A stretch of DNA of 64,000 nucleotides from an uncultured Anaerolineaceae bacterium (GTDB taxonomy: Bacteria > Chloroflexota > Anaerolineae > Anaerolineales > UBA4823), in contig CAZSFD010000014.1 in the NCBI GenBank assembly GCA_964606085.1, positions 3,469-67,468 of the forward strand. Direction: 5' to 3'. Position numbers and translations under genes: made by a program. Under the pieces are notes generated by a model. That model was given only the letters and a program-made list of their open reading frames with translations. It was not told where the DNA came from and ran no database searches. This document shows, in pieces, positions 9,757 to 62,868 of the stretch; the first letter of the stretch is position 1; the number at the start of each line of letters is the position of its first letter.

Positions 9757-10692
9757 CTAATGGGCAGTTTCGACGGCCAGGGCCAACGCCCCGATCAACC
9801 CCACGTCATCACCCAGGGCTGCCGGAACGATGGACAGGCCGTCGGTGTATTGTTCGTTCATGGCATATTCATGCACGGCGGCGCGCAGGGGCGCAAACAG
9901 CAGTTCACCGCTTTGTGAGACGCCCCCGCCAATGATCACGATGGATGGGTTGAAAATAGCCAGGAAATTGGCAATCGCCATCCCCAGGAACTTGCCCGCC
10001 CGCGCCAGGGCGGCGATGGACAGGGCGTCACCCGCTTTGGCCGCGTCAGCCACATCTTTGCCGCTGAATGGGCGGTCGGTTGGCAGGCTGGAAGCAACGC
10101 CAGCCTCCAACTGCTCTTTGGCCCAGCGCGCCAGCCCCGGCCCCGAAGCCAGGGCTTCGAGATGCCCGCGGTGCCCGCAATTGCACAGCGGGCCGTCAGG
10201 CAGGAGTACGACATGACCCAACTCGGCGGCCATGCCGCTCAGTCCTAAGATCAGGTGGTCATCCACAATGACGCCGCCGCCAATCCCCGTGCTGACGGTG
10301 AGATACACCAGGTGGTGGTGACCTTGACCAGCGCCAAACTTCCATTCGCCCAGGGCGGCCAGGTTGGCATCGTTGCCCAGGGCAACTGGCACACCGAAGG
10401 CATCTTGTAAGTGCTGGCGCAGTGGCAGCCCTTCCCATCCGGGGATGTTGGGGGCTTCGATGATGATGCCTGTGTAGGGATTGAGCGGGCCAGGGGCGAT
10501 AGCCGCTATCGCGGCCACCTCGCCATCTTCGGGCCACACCTTGCGCACCGCGGCGATCAGGTTCTCTAAAGGGGTTGCCCCGGCCGCGTGGGTGGCGGTT
10601 TTTTCGACGCTAAGTGGGGTGGTGGCATTTTCTGGATAACAGGCGGCGCGAATTTGTGTGCCGCCGATGTCTATGGCAATGTAGGTTTTCAT
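9757..10692 (-). CDS. ROK family glucokinase
   Basis: Motifs seen: MKTYIAIDIGGTQIR start, GIGGGVIVDD, and the ROK zinc motif CNCGHRGHLEALASG. I use ATG 10692 because the longer ORF (to 10920) overlaps the divergent promoter and yvcK. Confidence 0.85.
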   Translation of the reverse strand: MKTYIAIDIGGTQIRAACYPENATTPLSVEKTATHAAGATPLENLIAAVRKVWPEDGEVAAIAAIAPGPLNPYTGIIIEAPNIPGWEGLPLRQHLQDAFGVPVALGNDANLAALGEWKFGAGQGHHHLVYLTVSTGIGGGVIVDDHLILGLSGMAAELGHVVLLPDGPLCNCGHRGHLEALASGPGLARWAKEQLEAGVASSLPTDRPFSGKDVADAAKAGDALSIAALARAGKFLGMAIANFLAIFNPSIVIIGGGVSQSGELLFAPLRAAVHEYAMNEQYTDGLSIVPAALGDDVGLIGALALAVETAH

Positions 10693-10729
10693 AAGCTTGA
10701 TCTCGTCCCTAAAAGGATTATGCGGCGAT

Positions 10730-10738
10730 AGTATAGCA
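10730..10738 (-). promoter_or_regulatory. Extended -10 TGCTATACT (minus strand) for the ROK kinase gene
   Basis: The complement of agtatagca reads TGCTATACT, about 38 nt upstream of ATG 10692. Confidence 0.4.
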
Positions 10739-10774
10739 CAGCTTTTTGGGTACTCCGTTAAAGAAAGTTTTGCG

Positions 10775-10803
10775 TTGACGTGCGCTTGAAACACTGCTAT
10801 CAT
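10775..10803 (+). promoter_or_regulatory. Sigma-70-type promoter: TTGACG, 17 nt spacer, TGcTATCAT, for yvcK
   Basis: The -35 TTGACG is at 10775-10780, followed by a 17-nt spacer. The -10 TATCAT at 10798-10803 is preceded by TGC. The ATG at 10814 is only 10 nt after the -10 element, which predicts a near-leaderless mRNA. Confidence 0.55.
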
Positions 10804-10813
10804 CCACCTCGCA

Positions 10814-12136
10814 ATGAATATGGTTTTGCGGCGTTTTTTGGGGTGGTTGCGGCGCTCACTGCGTTGGCTGATGCCAGGATTGGGGGTCAAGCGCTGGTTC
10901 TTTTTTGTATTATTTGGCACGATGCTGATCGGATTGGGCCTGGCGGTGATTTTGCTGGATGTTTACCGCTCTGCTCCCGATACCTGGTGGCTGCCGATGC
11001 TTTCGGCGGCCTCGTTGCGTTGGTTGGAGCGCCCCCTGCGGGCGTTGATCTTCGGCGGCCTGGGCATCGGGCTGATCTTGTGGGGCATGTGGGGCTTCAA
11101 CCGCTCGCTGATGGCCCCCTATCGCCGTTCGGGCCGCCCTATGGTAGACGACCTGGCTGCGCATCGGCGGCGTGAACGCGGGCCGCGCATCGTCGTCATT
11201 GGCGGTGGGCATGGGCTTGCTACATTGCTGCGGGGTTTGAAGGGATATACTTACAACATCACCGCGGTTGTCACCGTGGCAGATGACGGCGGGTCATCGG
11301 GCGAATTGCGTCGCACGCTGGGCGTGCTGCCGCCGGGGGATATTCGCAACTGCCTGGCGGCCCTTTCCAGCGATGAGGCGTTGCTCGGCCAGCTCTTCCA
11401 ATATCGCTTTCCTGCTGATGGCAGTGGCCTCGATGGACATTCCTTTGGCAATCTGTTCATCACGGCCCTGGCCGAGATCACCGGCAGTTTCGAGGCGGCG
11501 GTGGCTGAATCGGGGCGGGTGCTTTCGGTGCATGGCCGCGTCCTGCCAGCCACGCTGCACGATGTCCGCCTGGTGGCTGACATCACACTGCCGCACACCG
11601 TGAGTGAAGTGCGCGTGGCTGGTGAAAGCCAAATCCCCGAGGCCAGCGGCATCATCCGCCGGGTTTGGCTGGAGCCAGAAACTCCCCCGGCCTATCCGGG
11701 CGTGATCCAGGCCATTCTCTCAGCAGACTTGATCGTGGTTGGGCCGGGCAGCCTGTATACCAGCATCTTGCCGAACTTACTCGTGCCAGATATCGCCGCG
11801 GCTATCCAAACCAGCCGAGCCGTGAAAATTTACGTTTGCAATGTCGCCACGCAGCCCGGCGAGACGGAAGGCTATTCGTGCGGCGATCATGTCGAGGCCC
11901 TCGAAAAGCATGTTGGCACAGGATTGTTCGATGTCATTCTGGCGAACCGCGATTGCGAATATATCCTTCCTGAAGGCGTGCAATGGGTGTGCAGCGATGA
12001 AGACCTGGAGGCCGATCACATCGTTCACAAAGCCGATCTGGCCGACCCCGAATATCCCTGGCGGCACGATGCCAAGAAATTGGCCCAGGTGTTGATGGAT
12101 TTGCTGCAAGATCGCACCGGGCCTCTGGTAGAATAG
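10814..12136 (+). CDS. yvcK: YvcK/CofD-like gluconeogenesis factor with an N-terminal two-helix membrane extension
   Basis: Motifs seen: [59 protein letters not shown]. The first ~115 aa contain two hydrophobic helices. Confidence 0.85.
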
Positions 12137-12215
12137 CGGGCGGTATGCTCATCGTGAATCAAACGGCAACCTGCCGTTATTTGATAAACCATATTTCTTT
12201 TCTGGAGGATTTCCC

Positions 12216-13229
12216 ATGACTGTCAAAATTGGTATCAATGGCTTTGGCCGTATTGGCCGCCTCGTGTTCCGCACGATCCAGGCCCGCGTGGCCGACAAAG
12301 TGGAAGTGGTGGCAATCAACGATCTGTTCGATACCCCCACCAACGCGCACCTGCTCAAGTACGATTCAACCTACGGCGCTTTCGATGGCAAAGTGGAAGT
12401 GGCTGAGAACAACGACCTGATCGTGGACGGCAAGCGCATCAAAATCACCGCCGAACGCGACCTGAACGCCATCAAGTGGGCCGAGATGGGCGTGGACATC
12501 GTGATCGAATCCACCGGCCTGTTCACCGACGCCACCAAATCACGCGGTCACGCCACTTCTGGCGGGGCCAAGAAGGTCATCATCTCCGCCCCGGCGAAGA
12601 ACGAAGACATCACCATCGTCCTCGGCGTCAACAGCGACAAGTACGACCCCGCCGCTCACCAGGTTATTTCCAACGCCTCCTGCACCACCAACGGCCTGGC
12701 CCCCGTCGCCAAAGTCCTCAACGACAAATTCGGCATTGACCGCGGCCTGCTGACCACCGTCCACGCTTACACCAACACCCAGAAGCTGCAAGATGTCGGC
12801 GCTAAAGACCTGCGCGATGCCCGCGCCGCCGCCCAGAACATCGTCCCCTCCGAAACCGGCGCCGCCAAGGCCGTCGGCCTGGTCATTCCCGAACTGAAGG
12901 GCAAATTCGGCGGCATGGCCTTCCGCGTCCCCACCCCCACCGTCTCGGTTGTAGATTTCACTGCTATCTTGAACAAGGAAGCCTCGAAGGATGAAATCCG
13001 CGCCGCCATGCTCGAATATGCCGCCGGCCCGATGCAAGGCATCCTCGACGTGACCGACGAACCGCTCGTCTCCACCGACCTGCGCGGCACCACCTTCTCC
13101 TCCGTTTACAGCGCCATGGACACCCTCGTCCTCGGCAACCTGGTCAAAGTCGTGGCCTGGTACGACAACGAATGGGGCTACGCCTGCCGCCTGGCCGATC
13201 TGACCGCCATGGTCGCCAGCAAACTCTAA
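12216..13229 (+). CDS. gap: Glyceraldehyde-3-phosphate dehydrogenase
   Basis: Motifs seen: [34 protein letters not shown] lies upstream of the ATG. Confidence 0.95.
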
Positions 13230-13238
13230 AGATATTGT

Positions 13239-13305
13239 GGATTGCTGATTGTTGATTGCTGATTTTCTCGGCAATCAGCAGTCAGCAATCACAAATCAGA
13301 AATCC
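13239..13305. repeat. Heptamer-repeat imperfect hairpin filling the gap-pgk spacer
   Basis: The left arm GGATTGCTGATTGTTGATTGCTGATT (13239-13264) is built from GATTGYT heptamers. The right arm AATCAGCAGTCAGCAATCACAAATCAGAAATCC (13273-13305) is its imperfect complement with one extra heptamer. The element ends 5 nt before the pgk ATG. Confidence 0.8.
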
Positions 13306-14483: not shown

Positions 14484-14495
14484 TTGCACGAAACG

Positions 14496-14540
14496 AGAAA
14501 TGAGAAACGAGTACCTCAACCGTACTCGTTTCTCATTTCT
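14496..14540 (+). promoter_or_regulatory. Perfect 19-bp stem-loop between pgk and tpiA, built from GAAAYGA heptamers
   Basis: AGAAATGAGAAACGAGTAC (14496-14514) pairs perfectly with GTACTCGTTTCTCATTTCT (14522-14540) across a 7-nt loop. It lies between the pgk stop (14483) and the tpiA ATG (14565). Confidence 0.8.
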
Positions 14541-14564
14541 TATATCTACTTTTTGGAGACCCTC

Positions 14565-16128: not shown

Positions 16129-17430
16129 TCAAGCAGGTTTCCAAAGCTTTGCCAGCGGCCCTTCCACCTCGCAGCCCAGCGCCGCTGCCAGCAGTTCCAC
16201 CGGGTGAACCGCCGGGATGCCCGTGGCGTGGGTGATCTGCCAGCGGCAGGTTTCGCTGTCGCAGATTGCCAACGGTGCGCCCGATGCCTTCACCCACTCG
16301 AACAGCGGGTCGCCTACGGCCATCGCAATGTCGTATTTTTCCACTTTATACCCATACGTCCCGGCGATGCCGCAGCAGGCGTGGCCGCCATCTGCCACCG
16401 TCAGGCCAGGGATCAGGTTCAGCACGTCTAGCCCCGGTTTGCCGATGCGGTGGGCGCGGTATTGGCAGGGGATGTGGTAGGGCAGGGGGGGCAGGTTTGC
16501 CGGTTGCAGGTTGGTAAGTGGCAGGGCGCAGGTGGCAAAGATCGGCAGGATGAATTCGTTGAAATCGTAGGTAGATTGGGCGACGAGGGCGGTGTCATCA
16601 TCGTGCATATCGAGCAGTTCGGGCGCTTCTTCCTTCAGGGTCAACGTGCAACTGGTGGACGTGCCGACGATGGGGATGCCCTGCCGGGCGTACGCCACCA
16701 ACGAGCGCACATTGCTCTCGTGATATTTGCGCGCCGCCGGAAATTCGCCGTTCGAGAGCAGCGGCAGCCCGCAGCAATTTTGGCGCGGGATGATCACCTC
16801 GAAGCCGAGCGCCTCCAGCACACGCACTGCCGCCTTGCCCACCCGCGGCTCGTAATACTGCGTGGAGCAGCCGTGGAAGTAAACGACCGATTTTTGATGG
16901 CTGATTGTTGAGGGCTGATTTTGGTGGTGGGCAAACCACCTCGTAAATTTCTCGCTCGAAAACGGCGGAAAGGGGGCTGCGTGGTGGATGCCGATGGTTT
17001 TCTCGGCCATCCAGCGCACCGGCTTCAGGCCCATCACCAGGTTGCCCAGCGGCGCCACCGGCTGCGCCACGGCCCCCAGCGTGGCCGCCCGCGCCACCAG
17101 GTTGTTGCGCAGACGTTTGAGCGGCGGCACTTTGCCCTGTTGCACCAGGTCGCCGCGCGCCCGCGCATTCATCTCAGCGATCTTCACCCCCGTCGGGCAG
17201 ATCATATTGCACACCCGGCAGCCGGAGCAGTAATCTACCGATGCGTCGGGCGTGGGCTGGCCGGGTTGGCGGAAGCGCCCTGCCTGCGGCCCGGCGTACT
17301 TGGGGCCGGGGAACAGGTCTGTGACCGCCATCACCGGGCAGGCGGTGGTGCAGATATTACATTTGAGACATTGATCGAGGGATTGTTCGACAGGAAATGG
17401 GTGCATGGGTTTGTGTGGCGCAAAATTCAT
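16129..17430 (-). CDS. GlpC-like (Fe-S) oxidoreductase with two 4Fe-4S motifs and two CCG domains
   Basis: Motifs seen: CLKCNICTTACP, CSGCRVCNMICP, FHGC..NCCGLP, CCGIAGTYG, CDSETCRWQI. The protein appears collinear with E. coli GlpC as recalled from memory (no alignment run). The start at ATG 17430 forms an ATGA overlap with the upstream membrane-protein gene; the 565-aa track ORF is an over-extension. Confidence 0.85.
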   Translation of the reverse strand: MNFAPHKPMHPFPVEQSLDQCLKCNICTTACPVMAVTDLFPGPKYAGPQAGRFRQPGQPTPDASVDYCSGCRVCNMICPTGVKIAEMNARARGDLVQQGKVPPLKRLRNNLVARAATLGAVAQPVAPLGNLVMGLKPVRWMAEKTIGIHHAAPFPPFSSEKFTRWFAHHQNQPSTISHQKSVVYFHGCSTQYYEPRVGKAAVRVLEALGFEVIIPRQNCCGLPLLSNGEFPAARKYHESNVRSLVAYARQGIPIVGTSTSCTLTLKEEAPELLDMHDDDTALVAQSTYDFNEFILPIFATCALPLTNLQPANLPPLPYHIPCQYRAHRIGKPGLDVLNLIPGLTVADGGHACCGIAGTYGYKVEKYDIAMAVGDPLFEWVKASGAPLAICDSETCRWQITHATGIPAVHPVELLAAALGCEVEGPLAKLWKPA

Positions 17431-20230: not shown

Positions 20231-23200
20231 TCACGGCCCGTTGCGGAAGATCAGCGGCAGGTAGATTTTGCGCAATGTCTCCTCCTCGCCCATGGTCAGC
20301 GTGGCTGTGGCGTTGGCGCTGGTGCTGCTGCCGGTGGCCGTGGCTGTCAGCGTGTATGTGCCATCGCCCGATGGCGTCACCCACACCAGCAGGGTGGCGG
20401 TGGCGTGGGCGGGCAGCGTGAGGGTGGCGCTGCTCAGGCTGAGGCTGGCCGCGGGATCGCTGGTAATGGACAGGTCGAGGGTGGCCAGCGTGGAACCGGT
20501 GTTGGTGACGACCAGGCCGAAAGCGGCACTGCCACTCTCGATGCTTTGTGTGGCGGGCTGCCAGGCGAGTTCGACGCCCTCCAGCGGGGTGATGGTCACT
20601 TCGGTGGTGGCTTGATCTTCGATGGCCGGCTGCGCTGTGGATTGGGCGTGGAGGCCGAGGAAGGCCGCGCCGGCGATCAAGCCATCCAGCCCGCTGACCG
20701 TCACCTGCACCGTCTGCGACTGCCCGGCGTTCAGCGTGACCGAGGCCGGGCTGAGCGTGGCAAACGCTGCCAGCGGCCCGAAGGCGGCCAGGTCGAACGT
20801 GCCGCTTGAACTGCCGGGGTTGCTCACGTTCACCTGCCACACGCCGCTGCCATCGGGTTGGAGGCTGGCCGGGCCGCCGGTGAAGGCCACGCTCACACCC
20901 AGGCTGCCCACCTGCACCACGCCATCCCCCGTGGCCGCCGCCCGCGCCGATTGTGCGGTGACGCCGACGGCATAGCTGCCCGGCGCAGCCGTGGCCGCCG
21001 GGCTGACCAGCCATTGCAGCGTGACGGCGTTGCCCGCGCCGGGGGCCACCAGCACGGCGCTGACCGGCTGGCCGAGCAGGGTCAGTTGGCCGCTCCAGCC
21101 TGCCGGGAGCGCCGCGCTCAGGTTGTAGGTGTCGGGCAGGCTGCCCAGGTTGGCGATGACCACGGTGAGGGCGGTCAGCGCGCCAGGGCCGGATGCGGCT
21201 GTTGCCGGGTCGAGTGTGACGGCGACGAGGTGGGCGCCTTCGCCGCTGATGACGGCGGTAGCGCTGGCGCTGGCCCCCGTTGCGGCGTAGGCGGCGATCA
21301 CGGTGAACGGGTTGCCGCCCTCGCTCACCGCCTGGGCGCTGAACGAAATTTCTGCGGCGCTGTTGGCGGGTACGCTGACCTGGGCGGGCAAATCGAGAAC
21401 GGCCAGGCCAGAGAAGGCGAGATCGTAGGTGCGGGCGGCGGCTTCGAGGTTGGTCACGGTCAGCGTGTAGGCAGCGGTCTCGCCGGTGGGTACGCCGGCG
21501 CTGTCGGGGGTGATCTCGACCAGCAGCGCCGGGCCGGTGAGGGTGAGAATGCCGCCGGCCTGATCGCCATCCACGAACACGCCAAAAGGCAGGCTGGCGG
21601 GCGTGGCGTCAGGGGCAATGGCGGCGGTGAGCGGCACGGTCACTGCGCTGTTGGCGGGTACGTTCACCGGGTCGAGCGGCCCCCAGGTGACGCCCGGCAG
21701 GGGGGTGACGCCGGGCGTGTAGAGGACGCCGGAAGGCCCTGGGTTGGAGAGCGTCACGTTGAACGTAACCGTCGCGCCGTTCGGGGCGGCCTGTTCTGCC
21801 GGGTCGAGGGCGATGATGTGCGGTACGCTGACGTACAGCGGCGGCAGTTCGAGGTGATTCTGGCCCGATGGCAGCGTGTAGTCAACGGATGTGGCCTGGG
21901 CGACGAGGCGGGTTTCGCCGGGTTGCAAGTCGGCAAGTTGGACATCGAAGGTACGCGTGATGACGGGGGTTTCCCAGGTTTGGGCGTAGTCCCAGGTGAA
22001 GGTGGGCAGGGCCAGGGTGGAAGGTTGCACGTTGAAGGTGTCGGTGAGGACGGTGAGGCTGTCCAGCCCGACGGTGTGGGTGAGGGCGACGGCGAAGGAG
22101 AGCATGGGGTAGCGCAGGTGAGTTTGCGTGCGGTAGGTGTTGTGAACTTCCCAGCTATTTGGCTCGCTGAAGGGCAGGCTCAGATCGTCGTTGATGTTGG
22201 TGATGTGGTAGGAGTGCTGGTTCCACAGCGGGCGGGCCTCCGTCCACAGCGGGCCGTTGCCAAAGACGCGCAGGCCGCGCAGGGCGGCTACCACCACTTC
22301 GGCCTGGCCGTCGTTATCTACATCGGCAATCAGGGGGTAATCGGTGCCGGTAAACGAATTGGCTAACGGTTCGTCGAAAAGCACATCGCCGGTCGCGCCA
22401 TCGAAAATCGTAAAGCCCTGCTCTTTCCCGTTCCAGGCCACTTCGTAAATGCCATCGCCATCCAGGTCCATCACCGCGGCGTTGTTGGCGGAGGTGCTGT
22501 CCTCGGCGATGACGCTCCACAGCAGCGAGCCATCGGCGTTGAGGGCGTAGAGCTTGCCGAAGCGCCCGGTTTCGAACTCGTGCTTCATGCCGGTAACGAT
22601 TTCGATCTCGCCGTCGCCATCTATGTCGGCGATGGATACGCCGCCGGGGTTGCCCGCTTCGAGCGGGGTCGTCCAGAGCAGCGCGCCGTCTGGCCCGTCG
22701 AGGACGGTCAGCGCGCCGTTGTGGGCGAAGGCCGCTTCGGGGCCGGGGTCGCCGCCGGGCTGCGCGCCATCTATATCGGCCACGGCGGGCGCGCCGAAGG
22801 TGCCGGCCATTGTCGAGGTCAGTGTGGCGCTCCAGGCCAGTTGCGGCGAGCCGTAGTTGAAGTCGTAGACGAACACTTCGTCGTCCCAACCGGTCAGGAC
22901 GATGTCGAGCAGGCCATCGCCGGTGAGGTCGGCCAGCACCGGCGGGTTGACTTCTTGGGGGTAGACGGTGCTCCACAGCAGTTCGCCATCGTGGGCGCGC
23001 ACTTCGAGGCGGTTGCCGGCGTTGACGACGATTTCGGGTTCGGGGTCGAGGTCGAGGTTGGCAATGGCCGGGGCGGTGAGGGTCTCGAAGATGCTGACGG
23101 TGTCGGTGACCCAGTAGGTGCTGCCGTCGCCGTGGAAGGCGTAGAGTTGGTCGCCCGCCGCCACGACGATCTCCGCGCCGGGCAAGCCGTCCAGGTCGCC

Positions 23201-26200
23201 CAGGGCGGGCGAGCTGACCCAGGTGCGGAAGGTTCCGCCGCCGAAGTCGTGCGACCAGACGATGGGGTCGCCGTCGCCGGTGTCGCCGCCATCGCCGCGA
23301 TAGACGAAGAGCGTGCCGAAGTTGATCACATCGTCGGCAGAGACCACGATTTCGGGCCGGCCGTCGGCATCTACATCGCCAACGGCCATACCGGCGGCGA
23401 TGCCGTAAGTGCCGAAGAAGGGCGCGCCGTTGCCGGCGGGGGTGTCATCCCACCATTCGGCAATCGGCTGGTAGGGCAAGGCGGGCTGGTTGGCGGCGAA
23501 GCCATCCACGCGCATCTCCCACACATTATGGACGCGAATGCTGTGCGGGCCGTAGGGCAGGCCGGTGTAGTGGAAGGCCAGCGGCTGAACGCTGAAGGGG
23601 TAATCGAAGCGGATCGTGTCGGTGAGAACGCCGTCTATGTAAATTTCGGCATGGGTATTGTCATTTACCGACAGTCCGTACACGGTGACGGAATCGCCCA
23701 CGAAGCTGTACCAGACGTTGCTGTTGCTGTTGGGCAGGCCCGAGTCCACGAAGTCACCCTGAAAGGCATTCGGGTGGGCGGCGTCGCTGGCCGAACTGCT
23801 GACATGCACGCGCGCCGATTCTTGGCCGCGCCGGGCGTTCTGGAAATCGTCGCTGACGGGCGAGCCGTCCCAGAACTCGACGTAATCGAGATAGACCTGG
23901 TTGTAGCCGTTGGGCGGGTCGGAGATGCCCAGCACGGTGATGGTGACGGTGTGTGTGCCGGTGATCACGTCGAACGGGTACGCGGCAACATCTTCGCCTG
24001 GCGTGTAGGCGTTGATGCTGCCGTAGCTCACGCCGTCAATGCTCACATCGGCCAGGCCGCCGCGGTTGCGCGTGCGCAGGCCGATTTCGAGCCAACTGCC
24101 GTAAAAATCGAAACTGACGGTATTGCCAGGGGTGTTGGATACGGCGTAGGCATACTCGCTGGCCTGCGGGGCGTTTTCGGCTCCCCACGTGTTGGGGCGA
24201 TGGGTGAAGGGGGAACCGTTGTAGCGCAGGGCGGGGTGGTCTTCCTCATAGCGCACCAGGCCGGTGTCGCTGGGCGGGTCGTAATCGGGGCCGACGGCGG
24301 GGGTGATGAAGGCGTCCACGTTGGCCTCGCCGCGGAACGTGCCGATCTGCATGACGTGAGGGCCGGGGCCGAAGCCGCTGAACGAGTAGGTGCGTGTGAC
24401 CGGCTGCCCGGCGTAGATCAGCACGTCGCCCTGCCACACGCCATCCACCCACACATGCACGCGGTGGCTGTCGTAGCGGGCGAGCGCCACGAAACTGGCC
24501 GAATCGCCGGTGAAGGGCAACCAGGCCGACTGGTTGTTGTTGATTGCGCCGTCTTGCATGTAACTGCCGCCGCTGGCCTCAGCCTGCGTGACCGTGAACC
24601 ATGCGCCGGGCTGGATCATGATGCGGGGATCGTTGTGTTCGTACAGGCCATCGGGGTAGAGCGTGCCATCCCAGGTATCCACGTAGTCAATCTTAATCTC
24701 GGCGCCGCTGGCGTTGGGGTGCGATTGACCCGTGACGACGATCTCCAGCGTGTGCGCGCCTTCGCCCAGTCCGCTGAAGGCGGCGCTGCTGGCGCATTCG
24801 CTGATGAAGCACTGCTGCACCGGGTGGTACAAATCCACCGTGCCGCGGCTGATGCCATCCACGAAGATTTCGGCAATGCCGCCGTTGCGCGCCTTCGCGA
24901 AGCCGATATGCACCCACGCGCCGTTGAACGCCAGGCTGGCCGTATCGCCCGGCGTGGCCGAGGCCGTATAGCTGCCGTCGCTCAGGTGCGAGGCGAAGAT
25001 GTTGCTGACGGTCGCCCAACTGCCGGTGTAAGCGAGGGCGGCATTTTGGGTGCGCGTGATGGCGAAGGTGGATTGGGGGGCGAGGGGAGGAAAGGAGATT
25101 TCTGATTGTTGATTGTTGATTGCTGAATTCTGATTGCGTGATTGCGTGATTGGGTGATTTTGCGGCACGATGCCGGGGATGATGATTTCGGTCGTGATAG
25201 CCGTGGTGACGGTGAACTCGCCGGGCGGGACGAGGAGCGGGGTGGTGCTGTGCGAGACGCCCAGCAGTTGGCCCACACCCAGGTAGGCGTAGTTGCTGCC
25301 CGTGGGGATCAGGCTGCCATTGCCATCGAGCAGTTCCACCGTGACGGTGTAGATACCGGCGGCCCAGCCGGAGGTATCCACGGTTTGCAGTTCGTAGCTG
25401 CGCGGCGCACCGACCCGGATCGTGACGGGCGTCTCGCTGCTGTGCGTGAGTGTGCCATCGGGTGCGCTGATGGCGGCGCGGGCGGTGGCGTTTTGCACAA
25501 TGTTGGCGATATTGGCGACATCTACAAACAGGGTGGTGCTGCTGCTGCCGGTCTCGACGAAAGCAGGCGTAGGCCGCACCGCCGTAATCTGCACAAACTT
25601 ATCCACCACGTTGAATTTCGCCGGGCTGTACGCCGAAATTTCACCGTGAGCGACGACCGTCACCGCCGCTTCCAGGTCATACACCCCGACAGCCGGCTGG
25701 ACGAGGTTATAGGGGCGGGTTTCCGTGCCGCCGGGATCGAGCGTGACCTGGCCGCCTTCGAGCGTGCCGCCGGGGAGCGAGACGGTGAAGGCGTAGGTGG
25801 TTTGCAGGCTGCCGCGGTTGGTGAGCGTGAGGGTGTAGGGAAGCGTCTGGTCGGTCAGGGCTGCGCCGTAGAAGGGCGTCCAGCGCAGTTCGGGGGCGTG
25901 CTGGCTCCAGGCGCACACTTCGCCATCCAGGGTGGTCACGGCGGCGCTGATCGCCTGGAGGTCGGCGGTCACATCGGCGGGGTCGGTGTGCGCGGCGAGG
26001 GAATCGGCGGCGGCAACCAGGGCCGCCGCGCCATCCAGTCCGTCGTGGACGGCCCCGGCGTAGAGCGCCACGCTGTAGGCGGCGCTGACGACCTGATCAC
26101 GCGGGATGGGGTGGCAGTCGCCGTTCTGGCAGGCGCTTTCGAGCGTCGTCATTGCCAGGGCCAGGGCATTCAGCGCCGCCGAAAGGCCCGGCTCGCCAAG

Positions 26201-29200
26201 CGTGCAGACGGTGGCGGCATTTTCCGATGCCTGGAAGACGGCCCCCGACAACTCGCTGACGATCTGCACGTTGGCAAGGGCATACTGCGTGTAACTGCCC
26301 GGCGCGGGGCTGCCGATGACGAGCGGGAAGCGCACACCCAGCGGCAGGTCGCTGGCGGCGGTGAAGGTGGCGGTTTGGGCGGCGCTTGCGCCTACGTCCA
26401 GCGTGACGGGCGAGGTCAGGCCGGTCACGCTGCCCACGTTAGGCGGTAAGATGACGTTCAAGGGGAAGCTGCCGGGGGCGTTGCCGACGTTGGTTATCGA
26501 AAGGTCGAAATCAGCGGCGGTGTTGGGGGCGAGGTAGAGGGTTGAAGGTTGGAAAGTTACAAAGTTGAAGGGTTGGGAGGGCATGAGCCAGTTGATCGTG
26601 GCCGAGTCGGAGAGCGCGCTGCCATCGCTGGCGCTGAGGTTGAGGGTCAGGCTCGTGCCGGGAGCGGGCAGGGTGGGCGGCGAAACATACAGGCCGAGCG
26701 TGGCGCGGGCGTTGGGGGCCAGGCTGAGGCTGGTGGCGCTTTGGCGCTCACCGTTTAAGATCAGCCAATCTGCTGGCGCGCCGGTGATGTTGAGGGTGAT
26801 GGTTTTGGGCTGCGAGGTCAGGTTTTCCACTTGCAAGCGGTAAGCGGCGTTGGGCACTTCGCTTTCGCCGTCGTTGGTCTCGTTGGCTTTCGCGTCGAGC
26901 AGGGCCGCACCGACCGGCACGCTGATATTCGGTTCAGCTTGCCAATCCAGGGTGATGGCGTTGGCGTTGGAAACGCTAATGGTGGTCTCGATGACGGCGG
27001 TGGCTTCGGGGTGCTGGCGCGCCTGGCCGACGATGCGCACGGTGTAATTTCCGGCGGCCACGCCCGGCAGGGGGGTGACGAGCGCTTCGAGCGTGGTTTC
27101 ATCGAAGGTCAACAGGAAGTCATCGGGCGCATAGGCCCACACATCCACCAGGCCAGCAAAGTTGGCCGCGGCGCTGATGTCGAAGGTGTGCGTTTCGCCA
27201 GGCAGTACACTGCCCGAAGGCGGCGTCACATCGAGGCTAAAGGCAGGCGAGCCGCCGCCGCCATCGGTCACTTCAATCACGCGCCCACCCCAGCTTTCAC
27301 CGGCGAAGCCGTCGTGGTAGCCAAAGGGTATCTCTGGCAGCGGGATGGGGGCCTGATCGGGGTAACGCAGGGCAAATTGTTCGATGCCGCAGGTTTCACC
27401 TGGGCAAAGATAGGCCGGCAGGTAACGCCATGAGGCGGCCTGTGGGCGCAGGCCGGGGCCGGGCGGCGACCAGCCATCCAGACAATTCGTCGGGCCGCCG
27501 GGGTTGCCTCGCAGCGCTGGCACCACGGCTTGCTCGATGCACGTCCACAGGTCAGAGACGGCCTGCTGAATTTCAGCGCCATCTTGCACGAGCAGGGCGA
27601 AATCTATGATGTTGGAGAGCATTTCATACTCGACCGCCGAAAGATGCAGCCCGTTCTCCATCACGCTGACAGTCTGGCCGGTTTGCGGGTCCACTTCCCA
27701 CCAGCCCAACACGGCCGCGCCGTCTACCATCACCGGCGCGGCGGGGATGAGGATGGCTTTGCCCTCCAGCAGGGCTTTTTCGGCGTAGGCGTAGGATGAA
27801 CCGGAGAAGTACAGTCCAAGCAGGGCGGTATCGCCGGGGGCAATCCACACCGGCTGGATGCCCTGTCCCGCCATCTCGTCGAAGAGGCGCGAGACGGTCA
27901 GCGGCGCCTGGCCGGTGAGCCGGAAGATGGCCTGGCCCTCGAAGTACGACTCGGCCACGCCTTTCAGCCATTGGGCGCTAAAGGCCGCCTGGGGCGACTG
28001 CCCCGGCGCGACCACGATTTTAGCCTCCGTCGAACGCAAATCTAACGCTTGGTAGACGCTGCCATCCGACTGCCGGGCGCTGCTGGCGATAATAACGCGT
28101 GGCTGTTCGTACACCCATTTGACCCGCAGCGAGGCTTCGATGTCGCGCTGCGTGCTGTCGGCCAGTTTGGCAAACTCCAAACCGGCCAGGGCATACTGCT
28201 CGTTACGCGCCTGAATATATTTGAGCATCATCTCGCGCAAGGCTGCCCCGCCGGCGGGCGTGCTGAGGTCGGCGGGCAGGTTTTGGGTCATTTGGGCGGT
28301 GGCGAGGATGGCGCGGGCGTTTTCGGCCTGGGCTTTGCGGGCGTATTGCTGATTTTTGAGCGCGTTGGGCAAGAACCAGGCGGCGAAGAGATCGTCGAAG
28401 GTGGCGAAGGGGGCATTATCGGCGGGCAGGGCGATGACCGGGTTGCCGCCGTGCAGTCGGGTTTCCAGGCCGAGCAAGTCTTTCAGTTCACGGGTGAAGC
28501 TATCGGTGACATTGCCGTTGCCATCCTGAATGGTCACGTGCAGCCACTCGGCCAGCGTGAAGTGGGAGGCCAGCGGGAAGTTGGTCAGCAAATCCTGGAA
28601 ATCGTCGCCCAGGAAGAGAACCTCATCGCCACCGACGGCGAAATAGGGCGTGTAGGTGTGCAAAATATTCGTCACCACGCCGCCCTGGATTGCCGTGTTG
28701 ACGATATGCCCAAAGGTGACGGCTTTGGCGGCCAGTTCGGGCATGGCAAAGGTGGCGGTGAGCGGGGTAAACGAAGTCAGGTTGAGGCCGCCCACCGGGA
28801 AACTGCTGTACTGCTCCACCTCGAGGGCAAAGGTGACGCGTTGACGCGTGGCGTCGGGCAGTTCGGCGAGGCGGTCGTTGCTGCCCGGCGTGGCGAAGAC
28901 ATCACCCACCTCGGCCTCGGCAAACGATGGGTCGAGGTTCGTCCAGCCAGAAGCGGGCAGGTAAGCCTCCACCCACCAGTGATCCTGGACGAGGGCGAGC
29001 AGGGCGGCGTCGTTGGCGGGGTCGGCGGTGGCCGCGCCAGCGGGCAGGTATCCGGCCACGCCCTGCGCCGCCGGGAACATGCCGTTGATCAATACCTGGG
29101 CATCTGCGGTGGAAAGCGTGCCGTGGCGGTAACGCGCCGGAATGCCCGCCGCACGCAGCATGGCGATCAGCAGGCTTGATTGGTCGAGGCTGTTGCCGGC

Positions 29201-29974
29201 CTCGTTCCACAGTGTGCCGCGCGTGCCGCGCAGCGAACCGGGGTAAGGGTCGAAGGCGAAGCCGCGCACGAAGGCGAAGAGCGCCAGCGGGTCTTGTGCA
29301 AACTCAGCAGATTTCCACAGCATGTCGGCGTCGTGTGAGTTGGCATCCAGCGTGGGCGTGGTGTAGGCGGCGGCGATGCCGGTCGGGATGATCGTGGCAG
29401 GGTGGGCTGTAACGGAGACGGTCTGTCCCCAATACGTGGCCGAAGCCTGCGCACCGCTATCGAGATTGATAAAGTTTGACCCGGCGGCAGGCGTTTGCAC
29501 GGTCAGCGTGAGCGTTGCGCTGGCCTGCGGCGGCAGGTCGGGCAGGCTCCAGGTGATGGTGCTGCCGCTCTGCACCGGCCCGTCCGAGGCAGACACAAAA
29601 GTGGTGCCAGCGGCAAGCGTATCGGCCAGGGTGAGGCCGCGCAGGGTGTTGACATCGTCGGTGGGGTTGAAAGCTGCCAGGATGTTGACCGTGTCGGTGG
29701 GTGTGGTGGATGGCGAAATATCGGGCAGGCGCGTGGCTGGCAGGTTGTTGGTGAGGACGAAGGTGATCGTCGTCGTCCCGGCGGTGTAGGAAGATTGGAG
29801 GCGCGAGAGCGAGAGGGGGTGATCCAACGTCTGCGCCGGGGCAGCGGCGGTTTGCGCATCGGGCGCTGGCGGAACTTGGGGCGTGGTCACGGCTGCCTGG
29901 ACGGGCATGAAGGCGAAGAGTTGGGCAATGATGACCAGCAGCGAAATGGCTCGGAAGGTGATGGAACGGTGCAT
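20231..29974 (-). CDS. Giant (3,247 aa) secreted mosaic surface protein: DUF11-like, transglutaminase-like, Ig-like arrays, jelly-roll modules, FG-GAP propeller
   Basis: Uninterrupted ORF with AGGAG 7 nt upstream of the ATG and a signal peptide MHRSITFRAISLLVIIAQLFAFMPVQA. Segments seen in order: DUF11-like LADTLAAGTTFVSASDG..TWSLPDL; transglutaminase-like LLIAMLRAAGIPARY / HWWVEAYLPASGWTNLDPS; four jelly-roll-like repeats; eight D.D.DG..E(I/V)V blades; NEW3/CARDB-like LPAGWSG..APGSYAVGV modules. Confidence 0.85.
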   Translation of the reverse strand: MHRSITFRAISLLVIIAQLFAFMPVQAAVTTPQVPPAPDAQTAAAPAQTLDHPLSLSRLQSSYTAGTTTITFVLTNNLPATRLPDISPSTTPTDTVNILAAFNPTDDVNTLRGLTLADTLAAGTTFVSASDGPVQSGSTITWSLPDLPPQASATLTLTVQTPAAGSNFINLDSGAQASATYWGQTVSVTAHPATIIPTGIAAAYTTPTLDANSHDADMLWKSAEFAQDPLALFAFVRGFAFDPYPGSLRGTRGTLWNEAGNSLDQSSLLIAMLRAAGIPARYRHGTLSTADAQVLINGMFPAAQGVAGYLPAGAATADPANDAALLALVQDHWWVEAYLPASGWTNLDPSFAEAEVGDVFATPGSNDRLAELPDATRQRVTFALEVEQYSSFPVGGLNLTSFTPLTATFAMPELAAKAVTFGHIVNTAIQGGVVTNILHTYTPYFAVGGDEVLFLGDDFQDLLTNFPLASHFTLAEWLHVTIQDGNGNVTDSFTRELKDLLGLETRLHGGNPVIALPADNAPFATFDDLFAAWFLPNALKNQQYARKAQAENARAILATAQMTQNLPADLSTPAGGAALREMMLKYIQARNEQYALAGLEFAKLADSTQRDIEASLRVKWVYEQPRVIIASSARQSDGSVYQALDLRSTEAKIVVAPGQSPQAAFSAQWLKGVAESYFEGQAIFRLTGQAPLTVSRLFDEMAGQGIQPVWIAPGDTALLGLYFSGSSYAYAEKALLEGKAILIPAAPVMVDGAAVLGWWEVDPQTGQTVSVMENGLHLSAVEYEMLSNIIDFALLVQDGAEIQQAVSDLWTCIEQAVVPALRGNPGGPTNCLDGWSPPGPGLRPQAASWRYLPAYLCPGETCGIEQFALRYPDQAPIPLPEIPFGYHDGFAGESWGGRVIEVTDGGGGSPAFSLDVTPPSGSVLPGETHTFDISAAANFAGLVDVWAYAPDDFLLTFDETTLEALVTPLPGVAAGNYTVRIVGQARQHPEATAVIETTISVSNANAITLDWQAEPNISVPVGAALLDAKANETNDGESEVPNAAYRLQVENLTSQPKTITLNITGAPADWLILNGERQSATSLSLAPNARATLGLYVSPPTLPAPGTSLTLNLSASDGSALSDSATINWLMPSQPFNFVTFQPSTLYLAPNTAADFDLSITNVGNAPGSFPLNVILPPNVGSVTGLTSPVTLDVGASAAQTATFTAASDLPLGVRFPLVIGSPAPGSYTQYALANVQIVSELSGAVFQASENAATVCTLGEPGLSAALNALALAMTTLESACQNGDCHPIPRDQVVSAAYSVALYAGAVHDGLDGAAALVAAADSLAAHTDPADVTADLQAISAAVTTLDGEVCAWSQHAPELRWTPFYGAALTDQTLPYTLTLTNRGSLQTTYAFTVSLPGGTLEGGQVTLDPGGTETRPYNLVQPAVGVYDLEAAVTVVAHGEISAYSPAKFNVVDKFVQITAVRPTPAFVETGSSSTTLFVDVANIANIVQNATARAAISAPDGTLTHSSETPVTIRVGAPRSYELQTVDTSGWAAGIYTVTVELLDGNGSLIPTGSNYAYLGVGQLLGVSHSTTPLLVPPGEFTVTTAITTEIIIPGIVPQNHPITQSRNQNSAINNQQSEISFPPLAPQSTFAITRTQNAALAYTGSWATVSNIFASHLSDGSYTASATPGDTASLAFNGAWVHIGFAKARNGGIAEIFVDGISRGTVDLYHPVQQCFISECASSAAFSGLGEGAHTLEIVVTGQSHPNASGAEIKIDYVDTWDGTLYPDGLYEHNDPRIMIQPGAWFTVTQAEASGGSYMQDGAINNNQSAWLPFTGDSASFVALARYDSHRVHVWVDGVWQGDVLIYAGQPVTRTYSFSGFGPGPHVMQIGTFRGEANVDAFITPAVGPDYDPPSDTGLVRYEEDHPALRYNGSPFTHRPNTWGAENAPQASEYAYAVSNTPGNTVSFDFYGSWLEIGLRTRNRGGLADVSIDGVSYGSINAYTPGEDVAAYPFDVITGTHTVTITVLGISDPPNGYNQVYLDYVEFWDGSPVSDDFQNARRGQESARVHVSSSASDAAHPNAFQGDFVDSGLPNSNSNVWYSFVGDSVTVYGLSVNDNTHAEIYIDGVLTDTIRFDYPFSVQPLAFHYTGLPYGPHSIRVHNVWEMRVDGFAANQPALPYQPIAEWWDDTPAGNGAPFFGTYGIAAGMAVGDVDADGRPEIVVSADDVINFGTLFVYRGDGGDTGDGDPIVWSHDFGGGTFRTWVSSPALGDLDGLPGAEIVVAAGDQLYAFHGDGSTYWVTDTVSIFETLTAPAIANLDLDPEPEIVVNAGNRLEVRAHDGELLWSTVYPQEVNPPVLADLTGDGLLDIVLTGWDDEVFVYDFNYGSPQLAWSATLTSTMAGTFGAPAVADIDGAQPGGDPGPEAAFAHNGALTVLDGPDGALLWTTPLEAGNPGGVSIADIDGDGEIEIVTGMKHEFETGRFGKLYALNADGSLLWSVIAEDSTSANNAAVMDLDGDGIYEVAWNGKEQGFTIFDGATGDVLFDEPLANSFTGTDYPLIADVDNDGQAEVVVAALRGLRVFGNGPLWTEARPLWNQHSYHITNINDDLSLPFSEPNSWEVHNTYRTQTHLRYPMLSFAVALTHTVGLDSLTVLTDTFNVQPSTLALPTFTWDYAQTWETPVITRTFDVQLADLQPGETRLVAQATSVDYTLPSGQNHLELPPLYVSVPHIIALDPAEQAAPNGATVTFNVTLSNPGPSGVLYTPGVTPLPGVTWGPLDPVNVPANSAVTVPLTAAIAPDATPASLPFGVFVDGDQAGGILTLTGPALLVEITPDSAGVPTGETAAYTLTVTNLEAAARTYDLAFSGLAVLDLPAQVSVPANSAAEISFSAQAVSEGGNPFTVIAAYAATGASASATAVISGEGAHLVAVTLDPATAASGPGALTALTVVIANLGSLPDTYNLSAALPAGWSGQLTLLGQPVSAVLVAPGAGNAVTLQWLVSPAATAAPGSYAVGVTAQSARAAATGDGVVQVGSLGVSVAFTGGPASLQPDGSGVWQVNVSNPGSSSGTFDLAAFGPLAAFATLSPASVTLNAGQSQTVQVTVSGLDGLIAGAAFLGLHAQSTAQPAIEDQATTEVTITPLEGVELAWQPATQSIESGSAAFGLVVTNTGSTLATLDLSITSDPAASLSLSSATLTLPAHATATLLVWVTPSGDGTYTLTATATGSSTSANATATLTMGEEETLRKIYLPLIFRNGP
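25097..25161 (-). repeat. Heptamer/octamer repeat tract translated in frame inside the giant ORF
   Basis: The minus strand reads AATCACCCAATCACGCAATCACGCAATCAGAATTCAGCAATCAACAATCAACAATCAGAAATC and encodes NHPITQSRNQNSAINNQQSEI. It shares the ..CAATCAGAAATC end and AATCA(R)C units with the intergenic element at 13273-13305. Confidence 0.75.
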
Positions 29975-50084: not shown

Positions 50085-50228
50085 GCAGAGCAGGTTGCAA
50101 GTTGCAGGTGGCAGGAAGCGCGGGGCGAGGGTATGGAAAGAAACGCCGGATGCTGCGATAACGCAACACCCGGCGCAAACCTGCTACTTGCTCCTTGCCA
50201 CTTGCCCCCTGCTACCTGCCCCCTGCTA
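50085..50228. repeat. Degenerate-heptamer inverted repeat (GCAGGTN family) downstream of the GH4 gene
   Basis: The left arm is GCAGAGCAGGTTGCAAGTTGCAGGTGGCAGGAAGC (50085-50119). The right arm is CCTGCTACTTGCTCCTTGCCACTTGCCCCCTGCTACCTGCCCCCTGCTA (50180-50228). GCAGGTGGCAGG against the complement of CCTGCTACCTGC matches 11 of 12. Confidence 0.7.
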
Positions 50229-53554: not shown

Positions 53555-53562
53555 GGGAAGAT

Positions 53563-53618
53563 GGTGAGAGGGTGAGAGGGTGAGAGGGTGAGAGGGTGAG
53601 AGGGTGAGAGGGTGAGAT
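53563..53618. repeat. Seven tandem octamers GGTGAGAG (CTCTCACC on the obg strand)
   Basis: Six perfect copies and one imperfect copy (GGTGAGAT) lie head to tail. The array starts 9 nt upstream of the obg ATG, in the obg/rex divergent spacer. Confidence 0.95.
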
Positions 53619-57867: not shown

Positions 57868-58178
57868 GTGGGCGGATCGGTGATGCCTGGTGCTGTCGGG
57901 CGGATCGGTGATGCCCAATGGCCGCCCGGCGATAAATCGCCGGGTTAGTGAGCGGCGCCCGCTGAAGCGGGCTGAAAGCCGGTTTTGAACCGGCGCTGTG
58001 GGTAGCCCGGACATTCATGTCCGGGCGGGCGTGATGCCGCCCGGGCGGATCGGTGACGCCCAATGGCCGCCCGGCGATAAATCGCCGGGCTAGTGAGCGG
58101 TGCCCGCTGAAGCGGGCTGAAAGCCGGTTTTGAACCGGCGCTGTGGGTAGCCCGGACATTCATGTCCGAGCGGGCGTG
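57868..58178. repeat. Tandem ~145-bp multi-hairpin element, about 2.2 copies
   Basis: Copy 1 starts at 57898 and copy 2 at 58043, with about 4 mismatches by eye. A partial leading copy lies at 57871-57888. Each unit contains CCCGGCGATAAATCGCCGGG, GCCCGCTGAAGCGGGC, GCCGGTTTTGAACCGGC and GCCCGGACATTCATGTCCGGGC hairpins. Confidence 0.9.
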
Positions 58179-58204
58179 AAATATCAGAGAAAGGAGATTC
58201 CGCT

Positions 58205-61722: not shown

Positions 61723-62757
61723 ATGTCCCCCTATCGCGTTGGCATCATTGGCTGCGGCCGCCCGTGGAAGGCCGATGGCTCGACCGGTTTTGGCATGTCG
61801 CGGGCGCACGCCCGCGGCTACAACCGCTCACCTGACTGCAAAATCGTCGCTTTGGCCGACATCAAGCTCGAAAACGCCCAGGCTTTCCAGGCTGAGTTGG
61901 GCGGCGATACACTTTACACCGATTACCGCGAGATGCTTGCCAAAGAGAATCTCGACATCGTCAGCATCTCGGTTTGGACGCGCCTGCACAAAGAGATGGT
62001 GCTGGCCGCTGCCGAAGCCGGGGTGAAGGCCATTCACTGCGAAAAGCCCATCGCGGCCAATTTTGGTGACGCCAAAGCGATGGTGCAGGCGTGCGAAAGC
62101 CGCGGCATCCAACTGACGTTCAATCACCAGCGCCGTTTCGACAGCGAGTTCCGCAAGGTGCGCGAACTCTACCAATCGGGCGTGATCGGCAAGCTCGAAC
62201 GCATGGAAGCGCGCTGCCCCGATATGTTCGACTGGGGCACGCACTGGTTCGATATGCTCTTCTTCTACAACGACGAAACCCCGGTGGAATGGGTGATCGC
62301 CCAGGTGGAGCCGCGCGGCGGGCATGATGTCTTCGCCGTCTACATGGAAGAACAGGGCATCAGCCATTTCAAGTATGCCAATGGCGTCCTCGGCACGCTC
62401 TACACCGGCCACACCGATCATTGGGATGCCTACAACCGGCTGGTTGGCGAGAACGGCACCATCGAACTGAACATGACCCGCAACCCGCAGGTGCGTTACT
62501 GGGCCAAAGGCATGACCGACTGGCAGGATGTTGCCACCGAAAAGGTGGAAGCCGTCGAGCTGGGCGTCCTCGACCTGGTAGATGCCCTCCAGACCGGCCG
62601 CGAGCCAGAGCTTTCGGGCGCGCGTGCCTTGCGCGCCACCGAGATGATCTTTGCCACCTACGAATCCAGCCGCCGCCACGGGCGCGTCGAACTCCCCCTC
62701 GACATCGAAGACAACCCGCTCGATGCGTTGGTCAAGATGGTAGCAAGTGGCAGGTAG
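61723..62757 (+). CDS. Gfo/Idh/MocA family oxidoreductase
   Basis: Motifs seen: YRVGIIGCGR, HCEKPIA, and a C-terminal alpha/beta domain. The stop TAG (62755-62757) lies inside the repeat arm. Confidence 0.9.
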   Translation: MSPYRVGIIGCGRPWKADGSTGFGMSRAHARGYNRSPDCKIVALADIKLENAQAFQAELGGDTLYTDYREMLAKENLDIVSISVWTRLHKEMVLAAAEAGVKAIHCEKPIAANFGDAKAMVQACESRGIQLTFNHQRRFDSEFRKVRELYQSGVIGKLERMEARCPDMFDWGTHWFDMLFFYNDETPVEWVIAQVEPRGGHDVFAVYMEEQGISHFKYANGVLGTLYTGHTDHWDAYNRLVGENGTIELNMTRNPQVRYWAKGMTDWQDVATEKVEAVELGVLDLVDALQTGREPELSGARALRATEMIFATYESSRRHGRVELPLDIEDNPLDALVKMVASGR

Positions 62758-62868
62758 CAGGTCAACCCTGCCCCCCTCCCCCCTGCCTCCTGCTAACTGC
62801 CCACTGCTAACTGCTCCCTGCTCCCCGCTCCCATGCTCCCTCCCTCCCCCGCTCCCTCCCCCCGTCTC
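62743..62868. repeat. GCAGGTN-family repeat hairpin plus C/T-rich tract spanning a stop codon and the next start codon
   Basis: GCAAGTGGCAGGTAGCAGG (62743-62761) pairs imperfectly (15 of 19) with CCTGCTAACTGCCCACTGC (62789-62807). CTGCTMM and CTCCC repeats follow up to 62868. Confidence 0.7.

Follow-up and report, generated by a model that had tools for sequence, protein, structure and literature searches.

Arrays of heptameric simple sequence repeats (SSRs) are over-represented in some large, high-GC or filamentous bacteria and lie mostly in intergenic regions near the ends of open reading frames (ORFs), sometimes in inverted arrangement and with unknown function (PMC4692102; Mrazek et al. 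2007 survey, via PMC4679880). Long simple sequence repeats (LSSRs) of this kind include GGGAATC in Xanthomonas and GGGGAYT in Nostoc (PMC4692102). In Beggiatoaceae, cyanobacteria, and Bacteroidetes, a minority of the TAACTGA heptamer repeats lies inside ORFs, at tolerant positions (MacGregor 2015, PMC4679880). [quoted passage not shown] Here we analyze a 64,000-nt stretch of DNA from an uncultured Anaerolineaceae bacterium (contig CAZSFD010000014.1, positions 3,469 to 67,468; hereafter the window), in which a tract of 7- and 8-nt repeat units is translated in frame in the middle of a giant ORF.

A preliminary description of this stretch had proposed that the tract is either the seam of a gene fusion or a potential on/off or long/short switch. 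We find that the tract is a one-armed, in-frame copy of the CAATCAN/GATTGNT family of arrays, which elsewhere mostly form two-armed hairpins at gene boundaries. We consider it probable that a dispersed heptamer-repeat array originated or grew, at the level of the DNA, within a linker free of constraint, where it is tolerated as a hydrophilic spacer, with selection acting only through the reading frame and the avoidance of stop codons.

Results

A heptamer/octamer array is translated in frame

The tract occupies positions 25097-25159 (63 nt) on the minus strand and consists of imperfect CAATCAN and CAATCACG units. On the coding strand it reads AATCACC CAATCACG CAATCACG CAATCAG AATTCAG CAATCAA CAATCAA CAATCAG AAATC, preceded by GGCATCGTGCCGCAA and followed by TCCTTTCC, and it encodes the peptide NHPITQSRNQNSAINNQQSEI, residues 1606-1626 of the ORF 20231..29974. 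The sequence, the units, and the in-frame translation are as given in the preliminary description, with two corrections: the first residue is 1606 rather than 1605, and the two extra bases of the interval 25097..25161 given there are part of the preceding Gln codon, outside the array proper. The array is made of an octamer block, CAATCAC[CG] (minus strand, 25131-25159; 3.6 copies, Tandem Repeats Finder period 8, 95% matches), and a heptamer block, CAATCA[AG]/AATTCAG (minus strand, 25097-25130), within which the same program called period 7 at 25103-25126 (3.4 copies, 94% matches). As a tandem 7/8-nt array it exceeds chance: its lag-7/8 autocorrelation is 0.62, where the 99th percentile of the locus is 0.47. 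Its perfect runs are limited to at most 2.9 copies of CAATCAA and 2 copies of CAATCACG, and its nine units fall into about six sequence variants.

The composition of the tract departs from that of its surroundings. Its GC content is 0.43-0.45, compared with approximately 0.65 in the flanks, and the GC content at its third codon positions (GC3) is 0.38 (8 of 21 codons), compared with 0.82 for the gene (binomial P = 8e-6). The low GC3 and the lack of conservation of the encoded peptide (see below) indicate that the signal lies at the DNA level and not at the peptide level.

A close relative of the tract lies in the 81-nt spacer between gap and pgk. This spacer holds a two-armed hairpin (plus strand, 13231..13305) of the form (GATTGCT GATTGTT GATTGCT GATT)-loop-(CAATCAG CAGTCAG CAATCAC AAATCAG AAATC), which folds with -41.8 kcal/mol (z = -8.1). 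Over its final 30 nt, the tract matches the right arm of this hairpin at 26 of 30 positions, both ending in ...AATCAGAAATC. The pattern CAATCANNAATCA, for which 0.01 matches would be expected in the window, has four there, shared equally between the tract and the gap-pgk spacer, which bears out the kinship claimed earlier. Altogether, the CAATCAN/GATTGNT unit family is found at three separate loci of the window (13240-13305, 16888-16929, and 25097-25159). No inverted partner of the tract was found within 1.5 kb, only chance GC-rich pairs, and folding of the tract RNA revealed no structure beyond that of shuffled sequence (z = -0.3 and -0.7). A search of the whole window at Rfam gathering thresholds gave no match. 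A scan for promoters and terminators around the tract found no promoter-like site and a single terminator-like match, at chance level.

The tract lies in a linker between two halves of a giant protein

The ORF (minus strand) encodes a secreted/surface protein of 3,247 aa, composed in order of a signal-like N-terminus, a DUF11 domain, a transglutaminase core, Ig-like modules, a linker, CE2_N-like jelly rolls, an FG-GAP propeller, and further Ig-like modules. Pfam places Transglut_core (residues 234-349) and the Ig-like FixG_C (1044-1128) before the tract and, after it, the CE2_N jelly roll (1945-2013) and the FG-GAP propeller repeats (2196-2403). This agrees with the earlier statement that the tract separates a transglutaminase/Ig-like half from a jelly-roll/propeller half. 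Alignment and anchor-based extraction delimit the whole variable linker as 38 aa (PGIVPQ...APQSTF; minus strand, 25064..25177), bounded by the conserved end of an Ig-like module (..VTTAITTEIII) and the conserved start of a jelly-roll module (AITRTQ..).

An AlphaFold model was built for a 551-aa fragment around the tract from 7 sequences (mean predicted local distance difference test score, pLDDT, 58). It predicts beta-sandwich domains up to approximately residue 247 of the fragment and a beta-rich domain from approximately residue 299. The stretch between them (residues 248-298), in which the tract occupies 257-277, lacks secondary structure and has a pLDDT of 21-29; the linker is probably disordered.

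When the number of units was changed in silico by one or two (+/-7, +/-8, or +/-14 nt), translation ended at aa 1661-1762, that is, 35-136 codons downstream, as the preliminary description had anticipated for the gain or loss of a unit. Inspection of the coding strand after the tract found no ATG or GTG with a Shine-Dalgarno-like sequence that could serve as an internal start for a separate C-terminal product; the GGAGG-like purine-rich run is on the opposite strand. Two plus-strand ORFs, 22580..25105 and 25142..26449, show the GC1 > GC3 pattern seen in antisense artefacts.

The giant protein ends in ...RKIYLPLIFRNGP (window positions 20231-20290), and the similar motifs IYLPAI, AYLPAV, and IFMPLL occur within long linkers of distant homologs (L019, L024, and L004). 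The C-terminal RKIYLPLIFRNGP-like motif may be a Chloroflexota-specific sorting or processing motif.

The orthologous linker is hypervariable and recurrently carries different arrays

To compare the junction across relatives, the 551-aa fragment around the tract was used for a homolog search, in which every homolog continued across the junction, and a scan of species-representative genomes, the source genome not among them, returned 40 loci, mostly in metagenome-assembled genomes (MAGs) of Anaerolineae, Ardenticatenaceae, and Caldilineae, with a best identity of 51%. Linkers were cut from 29 fetched loci via the conserved anchors (..VTTxITTE and AITRTE..) and, with that of the window, gave a set of 30. 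Whether orthologous loci hold one ORF or two had been raised as a check on the fusion proposal. All 30 Chloroflexota loci hold one frame, fused and open across the junction (33-51% identity, several classes). The ORF breaks present in the assemblies of L001-L004 fall elsewhere in the gene and not at the junction.

The linkers range in length from 84 to 414 nt, and the linker peptide is conserved in no homolog. When an array was called from a 63-nt sub-window with a lag-7 or lag-8 autocorrelation of at least 0.55, 11 of the 30 linkers, including that of the window, were array-bearing, above the 99th percentile of their own loci (0.39-0.49). The remaining 19 have ordinary Ala/Pro/Glu-rich sequence with period 3. 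The arrays differ between lineages. The L002 linker carries CGAATCAN octamers. That of L003 has (TATTCCG)x3 facing (CGGAATA)x3, with both arms translated and a predicted mRNA fold of z = -6.6, and those of L007 and L008 have GGGAATC/AGGAAAT arms facing CAATTCC arms, again both translated (z = -4.6 and -4.5, respectively). TCAGTGA and CAATTGA/CAATTCA units occur in L010, and GTCAATG-type and CAATTGAC-type arrays lie at the two ends of longer linkers in L015, L016, L026, L031, and L032.

The linkers of L007 (4859-4975) and L008 (10748-10885) belong to paralogs of the giant gene in one Anaerolineales MAG (MAG_39), 91% identical over the aligned stretch. Their lone indel measures exactly 21 nt, or three heptamers.

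The C-terminal half also occurs alone. In six gammaproteobacterial loci (L033, L036, L039, L040, L041, and L044; approximately 10000-12400 in most), from Wenzhouxiangella, Lysobacter, and Lysobacterales MAGs, a secreted protein of its own corresponds to the jelly-roll and propeller half. It has a signal peptide followed by 60-80 residues of low complexity, after which the homology sets in at the counterpart of FAITRTQ, right after the tract position. No N-terminal half was seen upstream of it in these loci. This arrangement suggests module exchange between phyla, and the junction is, as judged from these homologs, a genuine module boundary. Relatives of the glpC gene (83-88% identity) did not lead to a more closely related copy of the giant gene, as their neighborhoods are not syntenic.

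Further 7/8-nt arrays were seen within or just upstream of orthologous giant genes (L003, 1883-1915; L002, 5787-5837; L008, 9501-9530 and 10159-10178; L037, 6479-8246). In L003 the array follows the signal peptide, and in L002 it lies directly upstream of the start codon. Of the 53 arrays counted across all fetched loci, 34 were in coding-like frames, a count that is biased because the loci were fetched through the giant gene and that we did not use as a genome-wide rate.

Orientation and reading frame constrain which arrays can be translated

Idealized arrays of CAATCAG, CAATCAA, and CAATCACG are free of stop codons in all three frames. Because 7 and 8 are not multiples of 3, their complements present TGA in every frame within three units, and a two-armed hairpin of the CAATCAN family is therefore untranslatable. 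In contrast, TATTCCG/CGGAATA and CAATTCC/GGAATTG are stop-free in both orientations, and these are the units used by the translated hairpins of L003, L007, and L008. The CAATTGA-type units of L010 follow the expected trend, in that both of those with TNA in frame read TCA and both of those in phase 2 read TGA, numbers too small to weigh.

Two further arrays of the window are translated within glpC

The window contains approximately nine arrays of 7- or 8-nt units, most of which are paired inverted arms that fold as strong spacer hairpins. Six of them lie in spacers or overlap stop or start codons, and the tract is among the three that do not. Recurrent unit families include at least CAATCAN/GATTGNT and ACCTGCY/GCAGGTT, and both are also found in frame within glpC (16129..17406), which encodes subunit C of anaerobic glycerol-3-phosphate dehydrogenase. 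The first glpC array (minus strand, 16888..16929), CAAAATCAG CCCTCAA CAATCAG CCATCAA AAATCG, encodes the peptide HHQNQPSTISHQKS in a hypervariable loop preceding the first CCG domain. The second (minus strand, 16486..16515) is built of the AACCTGC unit family, which also builds the intergenic arrays at 50090-50228 and 62739-62860, and encodes TNLQPANLPP. When 15 GlpC proteins were aligned, each of the two sites proved to be a hypervariable loop. In a relative with 88% identity (L051), the first loop has two copies of AATCAGA, a small GC hairpin, and another AATCAGA and is 18 nt longer, and the second loop has four copies of AACCTGC and is 15 nt shorter. Given these two in-frame arrays, the tract in the giant ORF is not a one-off, and the 18- and 15-nt differences, together with the 21-nt indel between L007 and L008, indicate that changes in unit number are filtered by frame.

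Over 16.8 kb, the window matches two metagenome assemblies of the same strain with 100.000% identity and without a single indel, and the four sibling arrays at 13240-13305, 14490-14545, 16486-16515, and 16888-16929 are invariant across three independent same-strain assemblies. A flank-gap-flank pattern scan and a protein-guided scan of the metagenome contig collection found no contig covering the tract. The same-strain short-read contigs from JGI 3300037501 and 3300043177 all break near 17745 and at 22915-22967.

Arrays at gene boundaries and other repeats of the window

The spacer between pgk and tpiA holds a heptamer hairpin (plus strand, 14494..14541) of GAAACGA GAAATGA GAAACGA ... and its complement, with a folding energy of -30.3 kcal/mol (z = -7.7). 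Downstream of a GH4 gene, an inverted pair of (GCAGGTT)x3.7 and (ACCTGCT)x7.1 occupies 50090..50228, with no strand assigned, and its ACCTGCT array (50179-50228) provides the stop codon of that gene (50226-50228). At 62739..62860 (plus strand), tandem-repeat calls of GGTAGCA x3.4 and then CCCTGCT x8.6 bridge two genes. The GGTAGCA units provide the TAG stop (62755-62757) of a GFO/IDH/MocA oxidoreductase gene; by eye, the CCCTGCT/CTCCCTC units appear to hold an ATG that is in frame with the downstream gene and to encode its initial residues, MLPPSPAPSPR; the N-terminus of that gene's product looks GH42-like (..WYPEHW..). An array of (CACCCTCT)x7.4 with 98% matches (minus strand, 53559..53617) ends 5 nt upstream of the ATG of obg (53554, MFIDQA..), with no obvious Shine-Dalgarno sequence in between. 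Being the most homogeneous array in the window, it is the one here most likely to vary in length by slippage and thereby to affect expression.

Just upstream of a gene starting at 58205, a 145-nt unit is present in 2.0 copies with 97% identity (57897-58179) and has no Rfam match. Each copy holds several short GC-rich hairpins, e.g., GCCCGCTGAAGCGGGC, GCCGGTTTTGAACCGGC, and CCCGGACATTCATGTCCGGG.

Discussion

In this window, an array akin to intergenic copies is read in frame in a repeat-prone, hypervariable linker, and changes in unit number, where we see them, are kept only as multiples of 3 nt. We propose that such an array arises or grows through slippage, through template switching, or when an array that already exists is copied, and not by selection on the peptide. 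Selection would act as a filter only, letting survive those alleles that keep the frame in a stop-free orientation. The complementary arm would be missing from the tract since GATTGNT arrays put TGA in every frame. The Gln/Asn/Ser/Ile-rich peptide would then serve as a flexible spacer between the last Ig-like and the first jelly-roll module, with no part in a regulated switch. The preliminary description had named two outcomes that would speak against its observation, namely a peptide conserved on unrelated DNA, or the absence of other copies together with the absence of length variation. We found neither, and the observation therefore stands, although both mechanisms proposed with it are weak.

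Several points weigh against the tolerated-spacer reading. Local expansion cannot be told apart from insertion of a pre-formed array, and the neutrality of the tract is something that we infer. The recurrence of arrays at one linker, together with the strong translated hairpins (z = -4.5 to -6.6), could mean that some property of the site is under selection, be it an mRNA structure, a pause in translation from one module to the next, or an array that binds protein. Dispersal throughout the genome is an extrapolation from the 64-kb window and the related MAG loci. The structure model is weak, given its few sequences and low mean confidence, and its low-confidence stretch starts already at residue 208 of the fragment, ahead of the linker.

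A broader version of the proposal is possible, though on balance doubtful. It holds that in Anaerolineae-type Chloroflexota arrays and hairpins of 7-8-nt units are seeded and replaced by a process active throughout the lineage, with tolerant linkers, above all this junction in a transglutaminase/propeller family of giant surface proteins, as hot spots of coding uptake. If true, this would be a repeat-driven route to new peptide linkers, like that of the Rickettsia RPEs but starting from simple repeats, and the translated mRNA hairpins of some lineages could pace translation between modules.

An unlikely alternative is that the array or translated hairpin is kept for a role at the nucleic acid level, such as an array bound by a single-strand-binding protein, a pause in translation that keeps the folding or export of one half apart from that of the other, or a site of RNA processing. 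In favor of such an element are the recurrence of arrays in 11 of 30 loci at one linker despite complete turnover of the unit sequence and the strong in-frame hairpins of L003, L007, and L008. An AT-rich tract of rare codons also persists in a gene of high GC3. Furthermore, heptamer repeats beside start codons have been proposed as regulator binding sites (PMC4679880), and the obg array ends 5 nt from its start. However, the tract of the window lacks any RNA structure, 19 of the 30 linkers do without arrays, and the absence of a conserved unit sequence makes a sequence-specific binder unlikely. The lack of any Rfam match or promoter-like site, with a terminator-like match only at chance level, points the same way.

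The switch put forward in the preliminary description would make the tract a contingency locus, at which slippage by one unit toggles between the 3,247-aa protein and an N-terminal product of approximately 1,660-1,760 aa without the jelly-roll and propeller half. The units are indeed not multiples of 3, every one- or two-unit change that we simulated gives a stop, and a large surface-type protein belongs to the usual target class of phase variation. Change in unit number in the linker does occur over evolutionary time, as L007 and L008 demonstrate. Yet known phase-variable tracts are long and homogeneous, and the tract is short, made of imperfect units, and located in the middle of the gene rather than near its 5' end. 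All 30 linkers keep the frame, the difference within the only close pair is exactly three units, and the four sibling arrays do not vary among the three same-strain assemblies. The host is moreover a free-living member of the Chloroflexota and no host-adapted pathogen. On this evidence a switch is improbable, and the proposal finds no support.

We regard as improbable, too, the other mechanism proposed there, a fusion scar in which two once-separate genes were joined and an intergenic heptamer spacer became the coding seam. The idea draws on the position of the tract exactly on a module boundary, on its resemblance to the present-day gap-pgk spacer, and on the gammaproteobacterial homologs of the C-terminal half, which stand alone and start at the residues that follow the tract. 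Arrays of the window that overlap the stops or starts of adjacent genes also show how read-through into an array could occur. Nevertheless, no Chloroflexota junction locus that we recovered has separate halves; all are fused, many with non-repeat linkers, and a 63-nt spacer sequence would not survive such divergence. Among relatives the arrays vary much more than the domains on either side of them. Because the fused arrangement is old and the arrays differ even between fairly close relatives, any fusion long predates the arrays, which therefore overlay an old junction and are not its scar. In-frame arrays are also present in glpC, a single ancient gene with no fusion history. Finally, a chimeric ORF made by an assembly join across a dispersed repeat is hardly credible: same-strain short-read contigs break in or near the giant gene (22915-22967 and near 17745) and no public contig was found over the tract, but 29 other loci have contiguous sequence homologous to the two flanks, with order and frame preserved, and the frame is open for 3,247 codons with uniform GC3.

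The tract demonstrates that normally intergenic repeat DNA can be carried in frame in the middle of a large gene and, as in glpC, even of a housekeeping gene, provided that frame and orientation permit. For annotation, such tracts should not be called frameshift-prone pseudogene sites or fusion scars without comparative evidence. The presence of different arrays at one orthologous linker also offers a tractable case for estimating turnover rate and reading-frame selection, in which steps of 21 nt, stop-free orientation, and replacement of in-frame TGA by TCA would be the marks of a frame filter.

Comparison with known repeat systems

The tract shares with the SSRs of phase-variable pathogen genes (PMC2651432, PMC3315296) a unit that is not a multiple of 3, located inside the ORF of a surface protein, such that slippage by one unit truncates the product. 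It differs in being short, imperfect, and mid-gene, in having no out-of-frame alleles in relatives, and in the monomorphism of its sibling arrays.

The resemblance to the LSSRs and to the short tandemly repeated repetitive (STRR) sequences is closer. As in those systems, tandem imperfect 7-nt units occur at many dispersed loci that share few unit families, with a strong preference for positions just outside ORF ends and with inverted arrangements able to form stem-loops, in large, high-GC, free-living bacterial hosts. Here, by contrast, the units are CAATCAN, ACCTGCY, GAAACGA, and CACCCTCT, and 7- and 8-nt units are mixed. The cyanobacterial STRR1-3 units are absent from the tract. Nor do its units, CAATCA[ACG](G), match the published TAACTGA or GGGAATC units (PMC4679880; PMC4692102); GGGAATC does occur in the linkers of L007 and L008. 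The host belongs to the Chloroflexota, and the tract is mid-ORF and translated, unlike LSSR and STRR sequences, which are reported to be under-represented in coding regions. Heptamer arrays appear to be undescribed in Chloroflexota, since no description was found in the literature that could be searched.

Like the RPEs and other MITEs, the arrays considered here represent hairpin-capable, normally non-coding repeat DNA lying in frame in conserved genes and adding a fold-compatible peptide. The insertions are at structurally tolerant sites, namely the linker in the case of the tract and variable loops in the case of the two glpC arrays, and L003, L007, and L008 translate both hairpin arms. The RPEs, however, measure approximately 150 bp and have a conserved full-length consensus and peptide, whereas our arrays share only a 7-8-nt unit and vary in length by units. 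They also have no terminal inverted repeats or target-site duplications, which sets them apart from discrete elements of the MITE/RPE type.

The TAACTGA repeats offer a parallel in orientation and placement. There too, one orientation stops all three frames and only the other can lie in ORFs; copies in ORFs lie where the protein tolerates them, and many directly adjoin a start or stop codon, a placement shared by the obg, GH4, and MocA arrays of the window. In contrast to the TAACTGA copies, which lie mostly at the extreme N- or C-terminus, those of the window occupy an internal inter-module linker of a 3,247-aa protein and internal loops of GlpC, and the unit sequence is unrelated. In our case, moreover, the array at the same orthologous site changes from lineage to lineage; that one orthologous linker has repeatedly come to hold arrays of different kinds, translated hairpins among them, is in our view the most interesting aspect of the system.

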